Origin: a virus
Direction: 5' to 3' (one strand)
DNA length: 64,000 nucleotides
Virus record (IMG/VR): IMGVR_UViG_3300017963_000203
Location: 1 to 64,000 of that record
The notes under the pieces were generated by a model that was given only the letters and a program-made list of their open reading frames with translations, had not been told where the DNA came from and made no database searches. The stretch's first letter is position 1. The number at the start of each line of letters is the position of its first letter. This document shows positions 3,379-29,127 of this stretch, piece by piece. A program made the position numbers and the translations under genes.

Positions 3379-4664
3379 TGGCGAAGAGGAAGCCGACGAT
3401 CGAGTCAAATCTTCTGACGCGCGTCGCCTGGAACCCGGAAGAAATGAAGGATCTCGAGCTTCGTGGCTTCGATCCGAATGCCTTGAGCGCACCCTATGCC
3501 GCCGCGTTCAAGGAGGCGACACGTTTCATGGTCATGTACGGAGAGTTCCCATCGGCCCAGACTCTGATGAGCCGGGTCAAGGGAATCGAAATTCAGCGGT
3601 CCTGTCCGAAGAGGAAAGCGATCGTCTACTGGGAGACCATTCGGTGGTGGCAATGGCGCAACGACCTGGTCGGCGTCATCCAGGAGGTCTCCGAGATGTT
3701 CCCGGACGAGCTGAAGGACAGTGACCAGTCGCTCGACCTTCCTATGATCACCCAGGCCGGCCTCACGAAGTTCTCGGAGGTGTCGGCCAAGTACGCCAGC
3801 GAAACGGAACGGCCGATCCTTCTCGCGGATGCAGTGGACGATCTGGTCCGGGAACAAGAAGATGCTGGGAGCATGCTCGCAATCCCCATCCCGTTCGAAT
3901 TCATTCAAGAGGAAATTCGCGGATTCAAGGCGGGCCAACTCTACATCGTTGCCGGCCGTCCCAAGACCGGCAAGACCTGGTTCGCTCTCATCTGCGCAGC
4001 CCACGCCCTGTCCCAGGGCTACAAGGTCCTGCTCACCTCCCTTGAGATGCGGTACATCGAAATCGCCAGACGCATGGCGTGCATCATCGGAAAGGTGTCC
4101 TACAACCGATGCGTCAAGCGATCATGGCGTCCGCGGGAGAAGAAGCGGTATTACGAAGTGCTGCGAAGCATCAAGAAAGGGAAGATCGGCCAGAGACTAC
4201 AGATCGTAGGGCCTGGGGTGGCGAAGGGTCCAGAAACCGTGGGCACGTTACACAAGGCGTTCGGTGCTCACTTCGTGGTCGTGGACGCCTTCTACAACAT
4301 GCAGTCCTCCGGGGAGAAGGAGTGGGAGCGCGTTCTTGCACTCATGCGCAAGTACCGACGCGTATCCCTACCGTCCGAGGCCGCGTGGATGCTCGTCACG
4401 CAATTCAACCGGGGCGGCCGCAGCCGGCGAGGGGCCAACCTGGACAACCTGGGCTTCTCCGATGCCATCGGGCAGGACGCCAACGCCCTCATGTACGTCG
4501 TGCGCCCAAATCACTTGAAGAAGGCCCGGCAGGTCGACCTGATCCTGGGCGAGGCACGGGAGGCCGACGACGCCGTCGCCTTCCGCCACTACTGGGACTT
4601 TGTGGAGATGAACTGGGAACCTGTAGGGGCCGTAGCCTACGGCTCTGACGACGAGGAGGTCTAA
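3375..4664 (+). CDS. dnaB: DnaB-like replicative helicase
   Basis: Walker A GRPKTGKT, SLEM, VVVD, QFNR, SDAIGQDA. Confidence 0.92.
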   Translation: MMAKRKPTIESNLLTRVAWNPEEMKDLELRGFDPNALSAPYAAAFKEATRFMVMYGEFPSAQTLMSRVKGIEIQRSCPKRKAIVYWETIRWWQWRNDLVGVIQEVSEMFPDELKDSDQSLDLPMITQAGLTKFSEVSAKYASETERPILLADAVDDLVREQEDAGSMLAIPIPFEFIQEEIRGFKAGQLYIVAGRPKTGKTWFALICAAHALSQGYKVLLTSLEMRYIEIARRMACIIGKVSYNRCVKRSWRPREKKRYYEVLRSIKKGKIGQRLQIVGPGVAKGPETVGTLHKAFGAHFVVVDAFYNMQSSGEKEWERVLALMRKYRRVSLPSEAAWMLVTQFNRGGRSRRGANLDNLGFSDAIGQDANALMYVVRPNHLKKARQVDLILGEAREADDAVAFRHYWDFVEMNWEPVGAVAYGSDDEEV

Positions 4665-22446: not shown

Positions 22447-22860
22447 ATGGGCAAGAAACCATCGAATGAACACGCCGAGTCTTTCTGGACGATCCTCCTC
22501 TCGGAGGTATCTCTCCAGAAAGGCCAATACAGGGTGAAGGGACACTTCGCCTACGTCACCCTCCGTATCCAGGGAGGCACCAAGAAAATGTCTCTTTCTT
22601 GGCTCACACCAGAAGATCGACCGTTCGAGTTCGATCTACCTCCGCACCTCTTCCCAGGAAAGCGGTTCGACAAGATCTCGCCGCTGGATGTCGAGCTTCG
22701 TTTCGTCGAGCTCTTCGACCAGGTTCCGGTGTCGACCATCATGGAAGCACCCATCAACCTCCCCATCGAGAAGCTGCCGCCCAGGAAGAGGCGGCGCGCA
22801 CTCATGGCGGCGAAGAAGAAGAGAGAAAAGCAGATTTGGAACCCGCCTCATGTCGAATAA
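22447..22860 (+). CDS. hypothetical protein
   Basis: GAGGGA RBS; fills the operon. Confidence 0.65.
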   Translation: MGKKPSNEHAESFWTILLSEVSLQKGQYRVKGHFAYVTLRIQGGTKKMSLSWLTPEDRPFEFDLPPHLFPGKRFDKISPLDVELRFVELFDQVPVSTIMEAPINLPIEKLPPRKRRRALMAAKKKREKQIWNPPHVE

Positions 22861-23377
22861 ACTACGCATCCTGGGACTGGATACATCATCTCAAAAGGTT
22901 GGTTGGGCAGTGGTCGGCCAGGGCAAGGAACGCCCCGTCCTGGTCGACCACGGTCTACTCGTTCTGCAAAAGAAGTTGCGGCACCCGGCGAGGATGTGCC
23001 GCTTTGAGAATTTCGTCAAGGAACTCATCAAGACCCATGATGTCCACGATGTCGCCATCGAGGACCTGAAGTCGATCCAGAACGCGAAGACCGTTCGGAT
23101 CCTTCAGAACTACATTGCCGCGGCCACACTGGCGACCTGGAAGATGCTCCGCCGCGACGCCATACTCATCCCGCAATCCACAGCCCACAAGAGAATCGGA
23201 GTGAAAACCTTGACGCCAAAGGAGAAAAAGAAACTCACGAAGAAAGAGATTACCGAATACAACAAGAAAGCTGTACTGACCAAAGTGAACAGGGCGTTTA
23301 ACCTGGAATTAGGCGAACAGCACTACGACGTGAGCGATGCGATCACGATCGGCTTGGCCGGATTAGCGGGCCCATAG
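22850..23377 (+). CDS. ruvC: RuvC-like Holliday junction resolvase
   Basis: ILGLDTSSQKVGWAV, VAIED, DVSDAITIG. Confidence 0.8.
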   Translation: MSNKLRILGLDTSSQKVGWAVVGQGKERPVLVDHGLLVLQKKLRHPARMCRFENFVKELIKTHDVHDVAIEDLKSIQNAKTVRILQNYIAAATLATWKMLRRDAILIPQSTAHKRIGVKTLTPKEKKKLTKKEITEYNKKAVLTKVNRAFNLELGEQHYDVSDAITIGLAGLAGP

Positions 23378-23396
23378 GGGCCCGCAGCCAAGTTTT
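23353..23396 (+). terminator. probable intrinsic terminator
   Basis: GCGGGCCC-ATAG-GGGCCCGC with outer CTTGGC/GCCAAG, then TTTT. Confidence 0.55.
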
Positions 23397-23444
23397 ACCC
23401 AGAGGAAATACCTTCAAAATCTCTACCGCATACGTCATAAGAAT

Positions 23445-23790
23445 AGTGCAGCAGGAGTCCATTCTTCGCGCCAGCTCTCAGGGAAGATGGGCGCCACCAC
23501 CGGACATCCCCCAGTAGGGGAGACTCTCACGTCGATCCAAAAAAAGCCCTCCTTCGGGCAAGTCCCAGTAGCCGCGAGTTGGCATCGTGGTGAAAGCCGG
23601 CCTGAAGGAGACGCCGATCGACCGGGTTGGACGCCCGCACGAGAGGTCGGACGGGGCCTGTGCCCCCCGGGGACTTGCCGCAGACGAGGTTGCACAGAGC
23701 CTCGTCACACTACGAAACGAACTCCCCGGCTCGCGCCTCCGTGCGACAGGCCTTCCATTCAAACCCTCATTTGCTCGAGCCGGGGTTTTT
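23445..23790 (+). ncRNA. unidentified structured RNA (copy 1)
   Basis: Intergenic; stems GGCAAGTCCC/GGGACTTGCC, GACGAGG/CCTCGTC, CCCCGGCTCG/CGAGCCGGGG + T5; motifs shared with 28516-28812. Confidence 0.6.
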
Positions 23791-23877
23791 GAATCTGATG
23801 CTGGACGCAGATCCTCTTCACGATACACTGGTGTGTACGAGCCTTTTTTCCGTTTTCTCTGACGAAAGGAGAATGAC

Positions 23878-24315
23878 ATGAGGACCACTCTGGGGCTCCT
23901 GACGGCCCTGCTGGTGGTGTTCGTGGCTTGCTTCGCGACACAGATGGTGTCCGAGCAGCCTCGGGCTCCCGGTGCAGGGGAGGACGACTTCTGTATGAGA
24001 GAGGACATCCGCACGGGCATCGCCCACACCGACGGGGAGCCGGCCATCCCCTGGTCAAGGACGTACGTCATCGCCTACTTGAGCGACGGCGGCGCCCCGA
24101 CCATGGCCGAACAGGACATCATCGACTTCGAGATGTACGACGGGAAACCTCGCTCCAACGAGGCTTGGTGCCAGGAGGTCACCTTCCCGCGGCGGACCTG
24201 CTCAGAACAGATTCGCGAAAGAAAGATGAATCTGGATGCGCAGCACGCCACGGGCATCAACACCCTCATGGCCATCTTCGCCACCGGCAGGAAGAGCAGG
24301 AGGGCCGGGGTCTGA
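23878..24315 (+). CDS. hypothetical secreted/membrane-anchored protein
   Basis: AAGGAG RBS; N-terminal hydrophobic signal-like stretch. Confidence 0.7.
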   Translation: MRTTLGLLTALLVVFVACFATQMVSEQPRAPGAGEDDFCMREDIRTGIAHTDGEPAIPWSRTYVIAYLSDGGAPTMAEQDIIDFEMYDGKPRSNEAWCQEVTFPRRTCSEQIRERKMNLDAQHATGINTLMAIFATGRKSRRAGV

Positions 24316-24346
24316 ACTGGCGCCGATGGCGCCGGGTCTGTACACT

Positions 24347-24388
24347 GAGCCCCGGGCGGACTTCGGTCTGCTCGGGGCTTTCTTTTTT
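24347..24388 (+). terminator. intrinsic terminator
   Basis: GAGCCCCGGGCGGAC-TTCG-GTCTGCTCGGGGCTT + T-run. Confidence 0.8.
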
Positions 24389-24397
24389 CAAGAATAC

Positions 24398-24759
24398 GGG
24401 GGCGTAAAGGGTTCGACTGGGTAGTGAAAGGATACCTTGCGTGCCGTGGTTGGTCGGTCACCACGTTAAAAGCCGCCCACACTTTTAAGTGCCAATCCAA
24501 ACACTGGGAGCTTCACCGCTCCCCTCGCAGCGGTCGCTTAGACCCCTGCCCTCAAACCGGCGAGGTTCCGTAGCTGGGGCGAGGCCGTTCACGGGACTGG
24601 ATCGGCAGAGCTGGTCGTCTGCTGGTTGAGAAAAGACCTGGCTTCGTCGGGTGGAAAGAACCCGAATAGGTTGCCGGCTCTCGAAAGAACCGGATACGCG
24701 CGTAGACAGGTACTGGAAACTGCTTCAGGACGTGGGTTCGATTCCCACCGCCTCCACCA
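24398..24759 (+). ncRNA. ssrA: tmRNA
   Basis: 5' GGGGGCG..GGTTCGAC pairs with 3' CGCCTCC-ACCA (G3:U Ala determinant); T-arm GTGGGTTCGATTCCCAC; tag frame 24491-24541 ANPNTGSFTAPLAAVA*. Confidence 0.95.
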
Positions 24760-24763
24760 GCAC

Positions 24764-24788
24764 AGCCGAGCGCAACGCTCGGCTTTTT
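24764..24788 (+). terminator. tmRNA terminator
   Basis: AGCCGAGCG-CAA-CGCTCGGCT-TTTT. Confidence 0.85.
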
Positions 24789-24820
24789 CACTAACACCTT
24801 CCTGTTTGAAAGGGAGTCCT

Positions 24821-25831
24821 TTGCTAAAAGCAAGCAATCTCAAAGTATGTCCCGTATGCGGGAAGAGGAAATACTCGAAGAAGAAAGACCCTGTTGGAAA
24901 TAAGTGGCACCAGCATGTGACGGCCTGCATTCGATTCAATGAGAAATACGCAGGCGGCTGTGCCTGCGGAAAGATGCCATCGGACTTTCGCAGTAACGCT
25001 GGTTTTGCAAGCCACTTTTCTCGATGTAAATCAGCAGCAGTCGTGAAGAACCTCCCCACATGTAACTGCGGGAAAACTCGGGAGGATTTTTCCTCTCCTC
25101 AAGCATTCGGCGGTCACGTAAGCTCGTGCGGAATTCGCAAGGACAGTCCTGCCGCAGTCAAGGTCAGGTCCGTTAAAGTAGCAAAACCCTTCCGATGCCC
25201 AGAGTGTTCTAAGTCTTTTGCCACGAAACGGCAGCTAACCGCACATTCGTGGATACACAATAGCGAGGGGTGGGGGGATAAGGATTCGGTTCGACAGGCC
25301 CTACAAACAATCGCCGCATCCAGGATCAAACGGCTCCCCGTCAAAAAAAGAGTAGCCATCTGTCTTCCCGGAAACCGACCCGACAACGAAACGAAACTAC
25401 TCGCAGATCCCGGCTTCCACAGGATTCACATGGTCGAGTGCGACAGGGACAAGTTCCTGGTCGGAAGAGACATGGGATTCGACGTTGAACACGGCGATTT
25501 TCTGGAAGTCATGACTCGCTTAGTGAACGAAGGGACTAATTTCTCTCTTATTGACTACGATCTGTGCGGTACTCTGACGTATGCAGACGGCTCGACGATT
25601 CTCGATGCAATTAGGTTAGGAGGTCTGGCCGATATTGCGGCCGTTAGAATTACGTGTTGCCGACGTAATCACAAAAGGGACGGTCAACTCGACATTGCTG
25701 CATTTGATCGGGATGTCAACCATGCCCTCCCGCCTGGCTATTCTGTGACCGGACGGGCATGGCTTAATTATGTGGGCAAGGATAGATCATCGATGGCTAC
25801 ACAGCAGTGGTTGATCGAGAAAGGGGTGTGA
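24821..25831 (+). CDS. multi-zinc-finger protein with C-terminal SAM-methyltransferase-like fold
   Basis: TTG start after GGGAG; repeated CxC...F..H...C fingers; C2H2 KPFRCPECSKSF..RQLTAHSWIH; VECD, GDFLE, IDYDLCG; lower GC. Confidence 0.6.
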   Translation: MLKASNLKVCPVCGKRKYSKKKDPVGNKWHQHVTACIRFNEKYAGGCACGKMPSDFRSNAGFASHFSRCKSAAVVKNLPTCNCGKTREDFSSPQAFGGHVSSCGIRKDSPAAVKVRSVKVAKPFRCPECSKSFATKRQLTAHSWIHNSEGWGDKDSVRQALQTIAASRIKRLPVKKRVAICLPGNRPDNETKLLADPGFHRIHMVECDRDKFLVGRDMGFDVEHGDFLEVMTRLVNEGTNFSLIDYDLCGTLTYADGSTILDAIRLGGLADIAAVRITCCRRNHKRDGQLDIAAFDRDVNHALPPGYSVTGRAWLNYVGKDRSSMATQQWLIEKGV

Positions 25832-26091
25832 TGTTCAAGTGCAACCTATGTCATAAGGAATTCGAGACGGAGAGATCCCTGAACAGCCATCGAGCTTGGC
25901 ACTCAGGAAAATTGAAGGCTTGGAAAGATGCTTCACTTCTTGAGTACCCAGTGAGCAAAACAAAATGGCGAAGAAAAGGGACCAGGCTCATCCGGGAATT
26001 TCTACGTAAACTGCTGAATCCTGATATGCCTGTCGAAGATCGTGAAGACCTCATCAAGATGATCCACATGGAGATCGAAAAGCATCTCTGA
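25831..26091 (+). CDS. C2H2 zinc-finger protein
   Basis: FKCNLCHKEFETERSLNSHRAWH; TGATG coupling. Confidence 0.7.
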   Translation: MFKCNLCHKEFETERSLNSHRAWHSGKLKAWKDASLLEYPVSKTKWRRKGTRLIREFLRKLLNPDMPVEDREDLIKMIHMEIEKHL

Positions 26092-26099
26092 ATAGTAAC

Positions 26100-26242
26100 T
26101 CACCACCACGGTCGGGCTTGGCTGAGGAGGTTCAGCCTGACATACTTGTGTGGTGTCCTTCATCGGCACCACTCCTTTCCCTGGCGGGGGTCTTCGGGCC
26201 CCCGCGAATCAGTCAAGAGCGAGGCTTCGGCCTCGCTTTTTT
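26100..26242 (+). ncRNA. candidate small RNA (hairpin array ending in a terminator)
   Basis: GGCTGA/TCAGCC, GTGGTG/CACCAC, GCGGGGGTC-TTCG-GGCCCCCGC, AGCGAGGC-TTCG-GCCTCGCT-T5. Confidence 0.45.
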
Positions 26243-26295
26243 ATTGAGGGTGTCGTGCCTGCTGTCAAAGTCGCCATCGAGAAGAAGGAAGAAGA

Positions 26296-26463
26296 GTGAA
26301 GGAGATCGCCACAGAGTTCTTTTGGGGATTCGTGCTGCTCGTCCCCACGCTCGTCATCACCATGCTCGTCCTGGGCTCCATAGGGTATGTCCTGGAGAGC
26401 ATCGCCAAACTGTGGAAGAGGAGGTCAAGTGAACACCAAGACCCTGGAGAAAAAGATTCGTAA
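26296..26463 (+). CDS. small single-pass membrane protein (55 aa, below the ORF-track cutoff)
   Basis: MKEIATEFFWGFVLLVPTLVITMLVLGSIGYVLESIAKLWKRR...; AAGGAAG upstream. Confidence 0.55.
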   Translation: MKEIATEFFWGFVLLVPTLVITMLVLGSIGYVLESIAKLWKRRSSEHQDPGEKDS

Positions 26464-28258
26464 GGCCCGCGTAGCCTACTACAACGGAGAGCCCATCATG
26501 TCGGACAAGGAGTTCGACGAGCTCATGGATCATCTCCGGAACGCAGCCCCGACCAGCCGCGTCCTGAAGGAGGTGGGCGCAAAGCCGATGGGCACCACCG
26601 GAAAGCACTCCATCCCCATGGGAAGCCTGAAGGAAGCCAAGACCCCGGAGGAGATGGAGTCGTGGATGAAGGGGATCAAGCGTGGATTCCTGGTCATGGC
26701 CAAGGTCGACGGGCTCAGCCTGTCCTTGGACTATCGCGCCGGCATGCTCGTACAGGCGCTCACCCGCGGCAACGGCCGAGAAGGGGAGGAGGTGACCGCT
26801 AACGTGCTGGAAATGCAGAACGTCCTCGAAGAGATCCCGGGCTTCGACGGCACTCTGCGCGGCGAAGCGTACCTTCCCGTGGCCACCTTCAAGGAGAAGT
26901 ACGAGGGCGACTACGCCAACCCCAGGAACACCTGCGCCGGCATCGTGCGCCGGCACAGCGGTGAAGGATCTTCAGACGTGCACCTGGCTTACTTCTTCCT
27001 CGAGGAAACGGATCGGTTCTTCGCCACCAAGAGCGAGATGCTGGCACGCATCAAGGAGCTGGGACTCAAGACCGTCGACTCGTTCAAGACGAAGGGAATC
27101 ACGAGCCTCTGGCACGCATGGAACGGTGTGGTGAAGACTCGCTACGAACGAGCCTACGAGATGGACGGCATCGTAGTGTACGTCGACCGTGTAGGCGAGA
27201 GGGATCCAGGAGATCCCTTCCTGCCCGACGACGCCTTCGTCTACAAGTTCAATCCGGACGTGGCCGAGACCCAAGTCACCGAGATCGAGCACGTCGCCGG
27301 CCGGTCCGGGAGGGTCAACCCGAGAGTCCACGTCGAGCCGGTGAAGGTGGGGGGCGTCACAGTCACCCACGCGACGGGGAACAACTATCCCTGGCTGAAG
27401 AACCTGGGCGTGGGCGTTGGGGCCCTGGTCGAGATCTCGCGCCGCGGCGACACCATTCCAGCAGTGGAGAAGGTCCTCAAGGCCGGCGCACCCCTGGTTA
27501 TCCCCGGGTCGTGTCCAGCCTGCAAGAGCGTCCTCGAGAGGGACGGGGCCTACCTCAAGTGCAAGAACCTGGCCTGCGAAGCCAAGGACTCCGGAAGCGT
27601 TGCCCACTGGCTGCGCCTCATCGAGCTGAAGGGCGTCGGAAAGAGGACCTTGGAGAAGCTCGTGGAGATGGGTGTCCGACGTCCCTACCAGCTCTACAAC
27701 CAGCGGTTCGAGTTCTGGCAGGAGTTCGGAGCCAACGGGAGGAAGGTCTTCCAGCAGCTCATGCTGAAGAAGACCGTGAAGCCCGAGTACATCTTGGCCG
27801 CCCACGTCCCCAACGTGGGGCGCCGGCGCTTCCGAGCGCTCATCGACGCCGGCTTCTCCATCGACCACATCCTGCTGAACCGCTCGCCGTTGGCCTACAC
27901 CAACGTGGACGGCATCGGTGAGGAGATGGTCAAGACCATCGACGAAGGAATGAAACAGGAGGCCGCCAACATCCAACGCCTCCTCAACCATGTGAATCCG
28001 GAGGTACCCATGCCGAAGGGAGGAAACCTGGACGGATGGGCCGTCAAGTTCACAGGAAAGATGACGCGGAAGCGGAACGACCTCGAAGACCTCGCCATGG
28101 AGAAGGGAGCGCGCATCGGTTGGCAAAAGGGCAAGAAGAACGTCCTGATCATCGCCGACCCCAACTCCACGAGCACCAAGGCTCAGGCCGCGCGCAAGGC
28201 CGGGCACGAGATCATGTCCGAGGAGCAGTTCCTGGCGGCCGCGGGGGAGGCGGTATGA
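26429..28258 (+). CDS. ligA: NAD-dependent DNA ligase
   Basis: YY..SDKEFD, KVDG, TRGNG..GE, RGE, NPRN, DGIV, CPAC..C....C, HhH, BRCT (FTGKM); GAGGAGG RBS. Confidence 0.95.
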   Translation: MNTKTLEKKIRKARVAYYNGEPIMSDKEFDELMDHLRNAAPTSRVLKEVGAKPMGTTGKHSIPMGSLKEAKTPEEMESWMKGIKRGFLVMAKVDGLSLSLDYRAGMLVQALTRGNGREGEEVTANVLEMQNVLEEIPGFDGTLRGEAYLPVATFKEKYEGDYANPRNTCAGIVRRHSGEGSSDVHLAYFFLEETDRFFATKSEMLARIKELGLKTVDSFKTKGITSLWHAWNGVVKTRYERAYEMDGIVVYVDRVGERDPGDPFLPDDAFVYKFNPDVAETQVTEIEHVAGRSGRVNPRVHVEPVKVGGVTVTHATGNNYPWLKNLGVGVGALVEISRRGDTIPAVEKVLKAGAPLVIPGSCPACKSVLERDGAYLKCKNLACEAKDSGSVAHWLRLIELKGVGKRTLEKLVEMGVRRPYQLYNQRFEFWQEFGANGRKVFQQLMLKKTVKPEYILAAHVPNVGRRRFRALIDAGFSIDHILLNRSPLAYTNVDGIGEEMVKTIDEGMKQEAANIQRLLNHVNPEVPMPKGGNLDGWAVKFTGKMTRKRNDLEDLAMEKGARIGWQKGKKNVLIIADPNSTSTKAQAARKAGHEIMSEEQFLAAAGEAV

Positions 28259-28515
28259 CCGACCCGAACGCCGTCTTCGCACTTCTCGGAAATCTCGATG
28301 ATCGCCGCCGGAGTACGATGAACATGCTGAACCGAATCGTCGACGGAGAGCCGAGCGATCGTTCAGTTCTCGCCGAAGTGCTTCTGAATCACACTGCGAT
28401 CATGCGCGGTCAGCAGATCATCATCAGCCTTTTAACCGACCAAGGCTTGGCCACACGGAGTATGGCCAGGGACGCCCTGCCCGACTACCAAAAAGGGCAT
28501 GCTGATCAGTCATAA
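28255..28515 (+). CDS. hypothetical protein
   Basis: GGAGG RBS, ATGA-coupled to the ligase. Confidence 0.65.
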   Translation: MTDPNAVFALLGNLDDRRRSTMNMLNRIVDGEPSDRSVLAEVLLNHTAIMRGQQIIISLLTDQGLATRSMARDALPDYQKGHADQS

Positions 28516-28812
28516 GAAACTCGGTAGGAACCTTTCATTCATTCACAACTCTGTCGTGGCCCATAAGGGCTTAAAGGAAGCACCGTAGGGAGCACCAGGT
28601 TGACCGTCGATCAAGCAGCCGCTTGAGAGATGGGGTACGGGCCAAGGAGACGGGATACCTGATCGGCACGCGCAGCCGTGACGGGGAACCGACCTGCTTG
28701 GTCAAGGAGGGGTCAGCCGCCGAAACGTAAGACGTGTAGGCGGGATCGAGGTGTGCACGCCACGATCGGTTCCGGAAGAGACTCGATACCCGCGCGGATC
28801 GAGTTTCTTTTT
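28516..28812 (+). ncRNA. unidentified structured RNA (copy 2)
   Basis: Intergenic; TTGACC/GGTCAA, AAGCAG/CTGCTT, GTCGATCA/TGATCGGC; terminator GAGACTCGAT/ATCGAGTTTC + T5; motifs shared with copy 1. Confidence 0.6.
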
Positions 28813-28820
28813 ACTCAGCG

Positions 28821-28897
28821 AAAATCAAGTTCGTATTTTATATTTTCGTGGAAATTTTCACGAAAAGTCGATATGCTCAAAAACGACCCTTGATTTT
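28821..28897. promoter_or_regulatory. AT-rich nested inverted repeat (operator/promoter candidate)
   Basis: TTTTCGTGGAAA|TTTTCACGAAAA (28843-28866, one mismatch) inside AAAATCAAG...CTTGATTTT. Confidence 0.5.
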
Positions 28898-28914
28898 TCA
28901 CTCGGAGTGGTCAC

Positions 28915-29127
28915 GTGGAAAAGTACGGCGCAATTCAATGTCCGAAGTGCAAGAGCATGAATGTGATCGAGGAGGGTGCTGAGAAGATCGCGGTCGAGCA
29001 CAACGATCTGATCAAGACGGCCTCCGAGAACATGGGGGGCTCGTTCCTTTGCCAGGACTGCAAGCACAGATTCAGCAAGGTGACCGGGTCCGCCGCCTGC
29101 TTGCCGGACGAAAAGTCGGGCACCTGA
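28915..29127 (+). CDS. zinc-ribbon protein
   Basis: CPKC...CQDC; GGAG RBS before GTG. Confidence 0.7.
   Translation: MEKYGAIQCPKCKSMNVIEEGAEKIAVEHNDLIKTASENMGGSFLCQDCKHRFSKVTGSAACLPDEKSGT

Follow-up and report, generated by a model that had tools for sequence, protein, structure and literature searches.

Attenuating leaders and riboswitches are built on a long untranslated leader that runs from a promoter to an intrinsic terminator ahead of the genes concerned (on riboswitches in general, see the pertinent parts of PMC5473149 and PMC11477058). The raiA motif RNA is another kind of large, GC-rich structured noncoding RNA. Phage-encoded small RNAs, such as the T4 stable RNAs that adjoin tRNA genes, form discrete promoter-to-terminator units free of any open reading frame (ORF). 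In phage HK022, according to the part of PMC9378689 that deals with them, the antitermination RNAs putL and putR are two related cis-acting elements of one phage with a promoter upstream and terminators downstream, and the nascent transcript by itself enables the polymerase to pass terminators. Here we describe two noncoding regions, copy 1 and copy 2 (units 1 and 2), in a stretch of viral DNA that we call the window, bases 1-64000 of the 130,894-bp IMG/VR virus record IMGVR_UViG_3300017963_000203, whose completeness is estimated at 68%. A first-pass annotation had proposed that the two regions, which flank the transfer-messenger RNA (tmRNA) gene, are paralogous members of an unrecognised family of structured RNAs, possibly ribozymes or riboswitches with a pseudoknot. 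What the evidence bears out is a pair of lineage-specific noncoding units and no more; the family, the pseudoknot and the riboswitch or ribozyme nature are not supported. We tentatively read the units, at a probability of roughly 40%, as lineage-specific leader or attenuator RNAs that would gate read-through from a phage promoter.

Each of the known systems resembles the present locus in part. As in attenuating leaders and riboswitch platforms, a long untranslated leader would extend from a promoter to an intrinsic terminator ahead of genes, and the terminator's 5' arm in copy 1 is an alternative pairing partner for a strand of a strong helix. In contrast, neither a conserved aptamer nor an Rfam family was found for the units, the bodies are absent from relatives, and the alternative fold of copy 2 is energetically poor. 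The put RNAs measure ~70 nt, consist of two stem-loops and have the host polymerase as their target, whereas our units are 300-350 nt long and the polymerase is presumably the phage's own; the likeness is one of layout, and no put model is among the Rfam matches. The raiA motif RNA, to which the first-pass annotation had loosely likened copy 2, is likewise large and GC-rich, but its model matches neither copy 1 nor copy 2 at E<=10. Phage-encoded small RNAs share the discrete promoter-to-terminator unit without an ORF, although for our units no homologue was found.

Bounds and noncoding character of the two units

Both units carry a promoter-like motif at the 5' end and a T-run hairpin at the 3' end. 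Their parts, all on the + strand, are as follows.

23434-23790, +: copy 1 (unit 1) as a whole, between a RuvC-like gene and the 145-aa ORF that precedes the tmRNA gene
23434..23442, +: GTCATAAGA, promoter-like motif opening unit 1 (genome scan for GTCAYRAGA)
23443..23721, +: body of unit 1, with the first-pass motifs and a perfect 10-bp helix, 23557-23566/23670-23679
23722..23790, +: terminator hairpin of unit 1, arms 23724-23736/23773-23785, then TTTTT; loop of ~39 nt
28509-28812, +: copy 2 (unit 2) as a whole, after the ligase gene and an 86-aa ORF; it is followed by a very AT-rich stretch and by a small Zn-ribbon gene
28509..28517, +: GTCATAAGA, promoter-like motif opening unit 2 (same scan)
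28518..28775, +: body of unit 2, with the motifs verified
28640..28703, +: long irregular hairpin within copy 2, from minimum-free-energy pairs; within the part still present in a diverged relative
28776..28812, +: terminator of unit 2, arms 28776-28792/28793-28809, then TTTTT

In the 130.9-kb genome the + strand has 13 sites of the motif GTCAYRAGA and the - strand two, with ~1.5 sites per strand expected from base composition. It mostly lies 15-30 nt ahead of a ribosome-binding site (RBS) and an ATG start codon, often directly after a terminator tail ending TTTTTAC, and it is usually followed by N4, TGRA and the RBS; the + strand sites include 17903, 23434 and 28509. Because of this strand bias and this position ahead of gene starts, GTCAYRAGA looks like a phage promoter, and it is probably read by the phage's own RNA polymerase. 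Only in the two regions described here is the motif followed by 300-350 gene-free nucleotides and then a terminator, and the terminator tail of unit 2 (...TTTCTTTTTACT) is kept in relatives. From unit 1 up to the 145-aa ORF or the tmRNA gene no further GTCAYRAGA is found, and the ORF has none of its own; therefore, barring an unrecognised promoter, both genes would need read-through from unit 1. The claim that both regions follow GTCATAAGA and end in a terminator thus agrees with the boxes and T-run hairpins present, and both look like noncoding promoter-to-terminator units.

That the regions are noncoding was also borne out. Real genes here have a GC fraction of 0.40-0.49 at the second codon position (GC2) and 0.66-0.85 at the third (GC3), vs 0.54-0.69 and 0.50-0.71 for the ORFs inside both regions. 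None of the four internal ORFs matches PHROGs, neither region has a Pfam match, and the shared motifs sit in different reading frames in copy 1 and copy 2; protein coding is ruled out on these grounds. Remnants of a tmRNA or tRNA were likewise rejected, as no covariance model or ARAGORN match was obtained. We searched Rfam 15 (4227 models, raiA included) both at the gathering score and at E<=10. At the gathering score the tmRNA alone was found in the window; at E<=10 copy 1 gave three matches (E 0.8-6.3, 12.7-17 bits vs cut-offs of 50-75), none of them credible, and copy 2 gave none, so that both regions are indeed unrecognised. Rfam holds the known ribozyme classes, and among its models no known self-cleaving catalytic core was credibly matched. 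In addition, BLAST of both regions against 50,697 GenBank phage records returned no match at E<=1.

Resemblance, predicted folds and relatives

All eight motifs listed by the first-pass annotation (GTAGGG, CGTCGATC, AGCCGC, AAGGAGACG, GATCG, GCACG, GACGGGG and CGAAACG) are in place in both copies, as is GTCATAAGA. We compared the cores, 23505-23725 in copy 1 and 28575-28735 in copy 2, by collinear chains of exact k-mers. For k=5 the chain sums to 58, equalled by 2/1496 and 3/1500 random genomic windows; for k=6 the sum of 43 is reached by 4/1496 and 6/1500, and for k=7 the sum of 31 by 6/1496 and 6/1500, the second window set of each pair not having been cleaned of self-overlap. Of random window pairs drawn from this genome, ~0.2-0.4% thus equal the ordered motif chain. 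A local alignment of the cores with lenient gaps scores 50, which no shuffle reaches (0/500) and which random windows reach in 1/1483 and 5/1489 cases; in a systematic scan of the genome with lenient gaps, 23 of 6516 windows (14 loci) match copy 1 as well as copy 2 does, and 23 of 6509 (6 loci) match copy 2 as well as copy 1 does. Under ordinary gap costs (-5/-2) the score of the pair, 19, is indistinguishable from the background (mean 17.5). Neither copy picks the other as its best match in the genome. Searches by nhmmer of each core against the genome and 264 of 268 loci (~3.25 Mb; the own-genome loci L001-L004 omitted, the genome itself included) returned self matches only and did not link the copies, and MAFFT did not align the motifs but placed the copies in other registers. 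The resemblance exceeds chance only modestly; we regard paralogy as weak, and give about even odds that the cores share common descent or function.

The pairing of GTCGATC with GATCGRC across a closing stem, which the first-pass annotation had read as pseudoknot-like, does exist in both copies, and the differing closing stems (GGCAAGTCCC/GGGACTTGCC and AAGCAG/CTGCTT) are both present. However, the complementarity is partly automatic, because GTCGATC and GATCGAC have the palindrome CGATCG in common and GATC, a part of two of the eight motifs, is 2.3 times as frequent in the genome as expected (8.25 vs 3.6 per kb). In copy 2 the predicted pseudoknot and closing-stem helices overlap by 4 nt, and imposing the closing stem costs 9.9 kcal/mol over the minimum-free-energy fold; in copy 1 the fold with the closing stem lies 5.6 kcal/mol above the minimum. 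An inverted-repeat search of copy 1 found helices I2, I3 and I4. The 3' strand of its 10-bp helix (23670-23679) can alternatively pair with 23720-23729, the 5' arm of the terminator, and the terminator-free fold (-141.9) is only 2.7 kcal/mol above the minimum-free-energy fold (-144.6), a plausible switch geometry as far as the predicted folds go. AAGGAG is predicted to pair with an upstream partner in copy 1 but with a downstream one in copy 2, and AGCCGC serves as a stem strand in copy 1, but as loop plus stem in copy 2. Since the shared motifs differ in pairing role between the copies, a common fold is not supported.

To place the units among relatives, the surrounding features are needed.

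22688-23377: RuvC-like gene (Pfam PF02075, E 1.6e-12), upstream neighbour of copy 1
23878..24315, +: 145-aa ORF with a hydrophobic N-terminus and GC3 of 0.85, first gene downstream of unit 1; no Pfam or PHROGs family
24398..24759, +: complete tmRNA gene (Rfam RF00023, 136.7 bits); tag peptide ANPNTGSFTAPLAAVA (ARAGORN)
26429-28258: NAD-dependent DNA ligase, upstream of copy 2
28255-28515: 86-aa ORF, its stop codon overlapped by the GTCATAAGA box of unit 2
28813..28900, no strand assigned: AT-rich region directly after unit 2, kept in four relatives

Syntenic relatives were obtained by ligase scans. A search of IMG/VR with the single ligase protein found none, and with an alignment found only L110 (46% identity); among GTDB genomes nothing exceeded 33% identity; and a metagenome scan gave ten loci, L190-L199. 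Ligase homologues at 62-69% identity exist, and the syntenic relatives fall in this range. Synteny downstream of the ligase is lacking in four of the ten loci (L192, L196, L197 and L199), which were excluded from the counts. At locus 2, the core of copy 2 is present in none of the four syntenic relatives (L190, L191, L194 and L195), all of which keep the terminator tail, the AT-rich region and the Zn-ribbon gene; L190 has the terminator alone, L191 and L195 a small ORF and then the terminator, and L194 GTCATAAGA, one hairpin and the terminator within ~85 nt in total. At locus 1, the core of copy 1 is present in neither of two (L193 and L194); L193 has the promoter motif and a 46-codon open frame before the tmRNA gene, and L194 the promoter motif, a leader of ~100 nt and a look-alike of the N-terminus of the 145-aa ORF. 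Given these short leaders at both loci, the layout of promoter, leader and terminator is conserved and the long bodies are not.

A closer relative came from the public reads of run X3 as a contig of 3415 nt whose ligase pieces differ from ours by 16-19% (32/197, 43/227 and 43/244 other letters). It aligns over 28632-28991 with 64 other letters and 15 gaps, and 28242-28632 fails to align at 80%; of copy 2 this relative keeps the 3' half only. The same variant recurs in runs X1 and X2 as 151-nt contigs. With ~80% alignment against a ligase that differs by 16-19%, this 3' half is conserved like coding DNA. Among the changes listed, 11 cluster at 28663-28682 and 28683-28697 is unchanged; GATCG has become GATACG, and GCACG and GACGGGG are altered too. 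Three of the five affected predicted pairs of the copy 2 hairpin break, and with the listed changes applied a similar shape still forms (-22.5 vs -29.1 kcal/mol), which, for the listed differences only, hints that structure may constrain this 3' half. At copy 1, run X3 is almost without cover over 23300-23681, and the uncovered part proves nothing.

No further member was found beyond the two copies. The IMG/VR pattern AAGGAGACG..GATCG..GCACG returned 105 stretches, of which, besides our own locus, none has more than one of five further motifs; these are chance matches. In IMG/VR, patterns built on the block kept in the closer relative (28683-28697) likewise had 0 matches each. A chain scan for seven motifs over 345 sequences (4.69 Mb, both strands) reached six or all seven only at the two copies, for which the scan is circular, and chains of five at 12 entries in 9 other loci. 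The conserved, covarying aptamer by which a riboswitch is generally recognised was not found in these relatives or in the 4.69 Mb, and three of the motifs are changed in the closer relative; the conserved ribozyme or riboswitch family that the first-pass annotation had proposed was not upheld.

The AT-rich stretch that follows unit 2 is itself distinctive. With 32% GC, 28801-28900 is the lowest of all 100-nt windows in the 130.9-kb genome; 28813-28900 holds two inverted repeats (I3 and I5), and the blocks AAATCAA, GAAATT, ATATGCTC and CTTGAYTTT are conserved across 5 sequences. It could be an origin, or a cluster of promoters of another class.

Possible leader RNAs and competing explanations

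In the reading that we favour, each region would be transcribed, probably by the RNA polymerase of the phage itself, as a noncoding unit that runs from GTCAYRAGA to an intrinsic terminator. The genes placed behind the terminator are the 145-aa ORF and the tmRNA gene in the case of unit 1 and the Zn-ribbon gene cluster in that of unit 2. Whether transcription ends at the terminator or continues beyond it would depend on how the leader folds, perhaps with the help of a factor. The long bodies would be lineage-specific and fast-evolving, with the promoter/leader/terminator arrangement as the conserved part. This reading is suggested by the strand-biased motif at gene starts, by the motif and T-run hairpin that bound both units, and by the lack of a coding signature or protein-family match between them. 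It is also consistent with the layout kept at both loci by L194, with leaders of ~85-100 nt, and with the promoter kept at locus 1 by L193, with the competition at 2.7 kcal/mol between a helix strand of copy 1 and the terminator arm, and with the coding-like conservation of the 3' half of copy 2 in the closer relative. If the units are real regulatory leaders, a large phage would time its tmRNA and neighbouring genes through RNA structure; to our knowledge, little is known about such timing in large phages with their own RNA polymerase.

Several points weigh against leader RNAs. Transcription of both units, with its start sites and its termination, is something that we infer from sequence signals, and a phage polymerase that obeys intrinsic terminators is presumed. 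A consensus terminator scan flagged neither hairpin (5 sites found vs 6.0 expected from shuffles), probably because their loops or mismatches exceed the limits of the scan. The predicted folds are only mildly more stable than dinucleotide shuffles, with z between -1.1 and -2.5 (copy 1, -2.1 without its terminator and -2.5 for the core alone; copy 2, -2.4 and -1.1). Alternative pairings of the size seen in copy 1 are common among GC-rich RNAs of 300 nt, and the candidate antiterminator fold of copy 2 lies 22 kcal/mol above its minimum-free-energy fold. Finally, the AT-rich region, which may have its own promoter, separates the terminator of unit 2 from the next gene.

The resemblance between the copies may be due to chance, the bodies being fast-evolving filler or decayed and only the promoter motif and the terminators functional. 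Ordinary gap costs abolish the similarity, 14 and 6 other loci score equally with lenient ones, the copies are not reciprocal best matches and neither nhmmer nor MAFFT links them; the excess of GATC inflates two of the motifs, the shared motifs pair differently in the two predicted folds, and relatives manage with leaders of 0-100 nt. However, the chain still lies in the top 0.2-0.4%, and with only two such units in the genome few comparisons are implied. The coding-like identity of the 3' half of copy 2 in the relative and the perfect 10-bp helix of copy 1, of which we roughly estimate 0.06-0.2 to be expected per region, also argue against mere filler, and this explanation appears rather doubtful, though it deserves serious weight. 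Alternatively, the units may be stand-alone small RNAs of ~350 and ~300 nt that act in trans, with mRNAs or proteins of the host or of the phage as targets instead of the genes downstream of them. The ORF-free interval from a promoter-like motif to a terminator would suit this, read-through would be unneeded at locus 2, where the separate, conserved AT-rich region precedes the next gene, and the terminator loop of copy 1 has CCUCC and CCUUCC stretches that could pair with Shine-Dalgarno sequences. The bodies are nevertheless missing from all the syntenic relatives (0/4 and 0/2), and we consider trans-acting RNAs unlikely.

For unit 2, an origin-associated transcript may also be envisaged that activates or primes replication, as known for the transcription-activated origins of T7, T4 and lambda, in which case the RNA sequence would matter little. 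The unit lies in a replication gene block with RuvC and ligase, next to the most AT-rich 100 nt of the genome and its inverted repeats, a turning point of the cumulative GC skew is near (~28-31 kb), and relatives keep the terminator and the AT-rich blocks but not the RNA body. On the other hand, the terminator separates the promoter from the AT-rich region, unit 1 is without an AT-rich neighbour, the skew signal is weak in a record that is only ~68% complete, and the AT-rich region may be a mere promoter cluster, making an origin transcript very improbable. We give even less credence to a new ligand-sensing or catalytic RNA family defined by the GTCGATC/GATCGRC pseudoknot across a closing stem. 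Both pairings occur in both copies with closing stems that differ in sequence, the closing helix of copy 1 competes with the terminator arm as in a riboswitch, and with no Rfam match the RNA would be new. Yet it is not conserved beyond the lineage, the change of GATCG to GATACG in the closer relative would disrupt a pseudoknot strand while GCACG and GACGGGG change as well, the helices of copy 2 clash and their closing-stem fold is penalised, and the complementarity follows from a palindrome common in the genome.

The conserved-loop hairpin and minor observations at the locus

The terminator hairpin that ends copy 1 is a more solid by-product of this analysis than the RNA family originally claimed. 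Its ~39-nt loop, GCCTCCGTGCGACAGGCCTTCCATTCAAACCCTCATTTG, recurs almost unchanged in two unrelated IMG/VR phages. The hairpin of L349, a record of 87.8 kb, lies at ~1840-1905 on the - strand, with a tRNA-like stretch on one side and a tRNA-Leu gene on the other; that of L351 (120.9 kb) lies at ~4410-4475, also on the - strand, ~100 nt beyond a 541-aa ORF and with TTTTG following it. The closing stems of 9-10 bp all differ (CCCCGGCTCG, CCTCTCGGGG and CCTCGGCCC), each with its own complement, and RNAalifold on the three sequences finds changes on both sides in 6 of 18 predicted pairs. A conserved loop on differing stems points to a functional RNA or DNA module. In run X3 the read depth, which drew attention to 23733-23776, is raised over the hairpin (91.8 vs ~10-17 nearby).

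The model R1, which scores 108, 101 and 84 bits on its own three source sequences, gave no additional match in 1.62 Mb of other phage loci and, on five phage records, nothing beyond the three known, with one copy per record; no Rfam family matched the hairpin. The first 17 nt of the loop (GCCTCCGTGCGACAGGC) occur alone in L349, in L350 (511-527) and in L352 (2339-2355), and we estimate that a 17-mer alone could match by chance. The lone copy in L349 lies on the - strand ~190 nt upstream of the hairpin, so that two 17-nt copies bracket the tRNA-like stretch, which ARAGORN does not call; the first L349 copy and L350 have 21 nt in common. With one mismatch allowed, the loop pattern matched 5 of 401 Spirochaetota genomes vs 7 matches of the reversed control, which is chance level, and none of five further targets searched; a match in L353 looks like a chance match inside coding sequence. 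A reading that joins these observations to the units would make the units a diverged new class of regulatory RNA, with a pseudoknotted core that senses a signal and gates read-through by the phage polymerase into the tmRNA operon and the neighbouring operon, and the copy 1 hairpin a portable module exchanged between unrelated large phages; we hold this combination to be quite improbable.

The GATC cluster in copy 2 was considered as a mark of an origin and rejected: its 300 nt contain 5 sites, a count reached or exceeded in 270 of 2612 windows. The densest cluster in the genome, 12 sites in 300 nt, is at 113651-113950 and thus outside the window. The nearest cellular homologues of the phage ligase (27-33% identity; loci L270-L348) are mostly from Spirochaetota metagenome-assembled genomes, at best a weak hint about the phage host.

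Downstream of the tmRNA gene, 24821-26091 holds two ORFs with weak C2H2 zinc-finger matches, all under the Pfam cut-offs. In a relative seen in the reads of run X3 this block is absent, and 24759/24760 is fused directly to ~26094-26160. In the relative L193, ~30 nt of the tmRNA 3' end (2145-2175) recur at 2690-2720, after a ~150-codon ORF that lies immediately 3' of the tmRNA, an arrangement that suggests insertion of a gene at this 3' end, its target having been duplicated.

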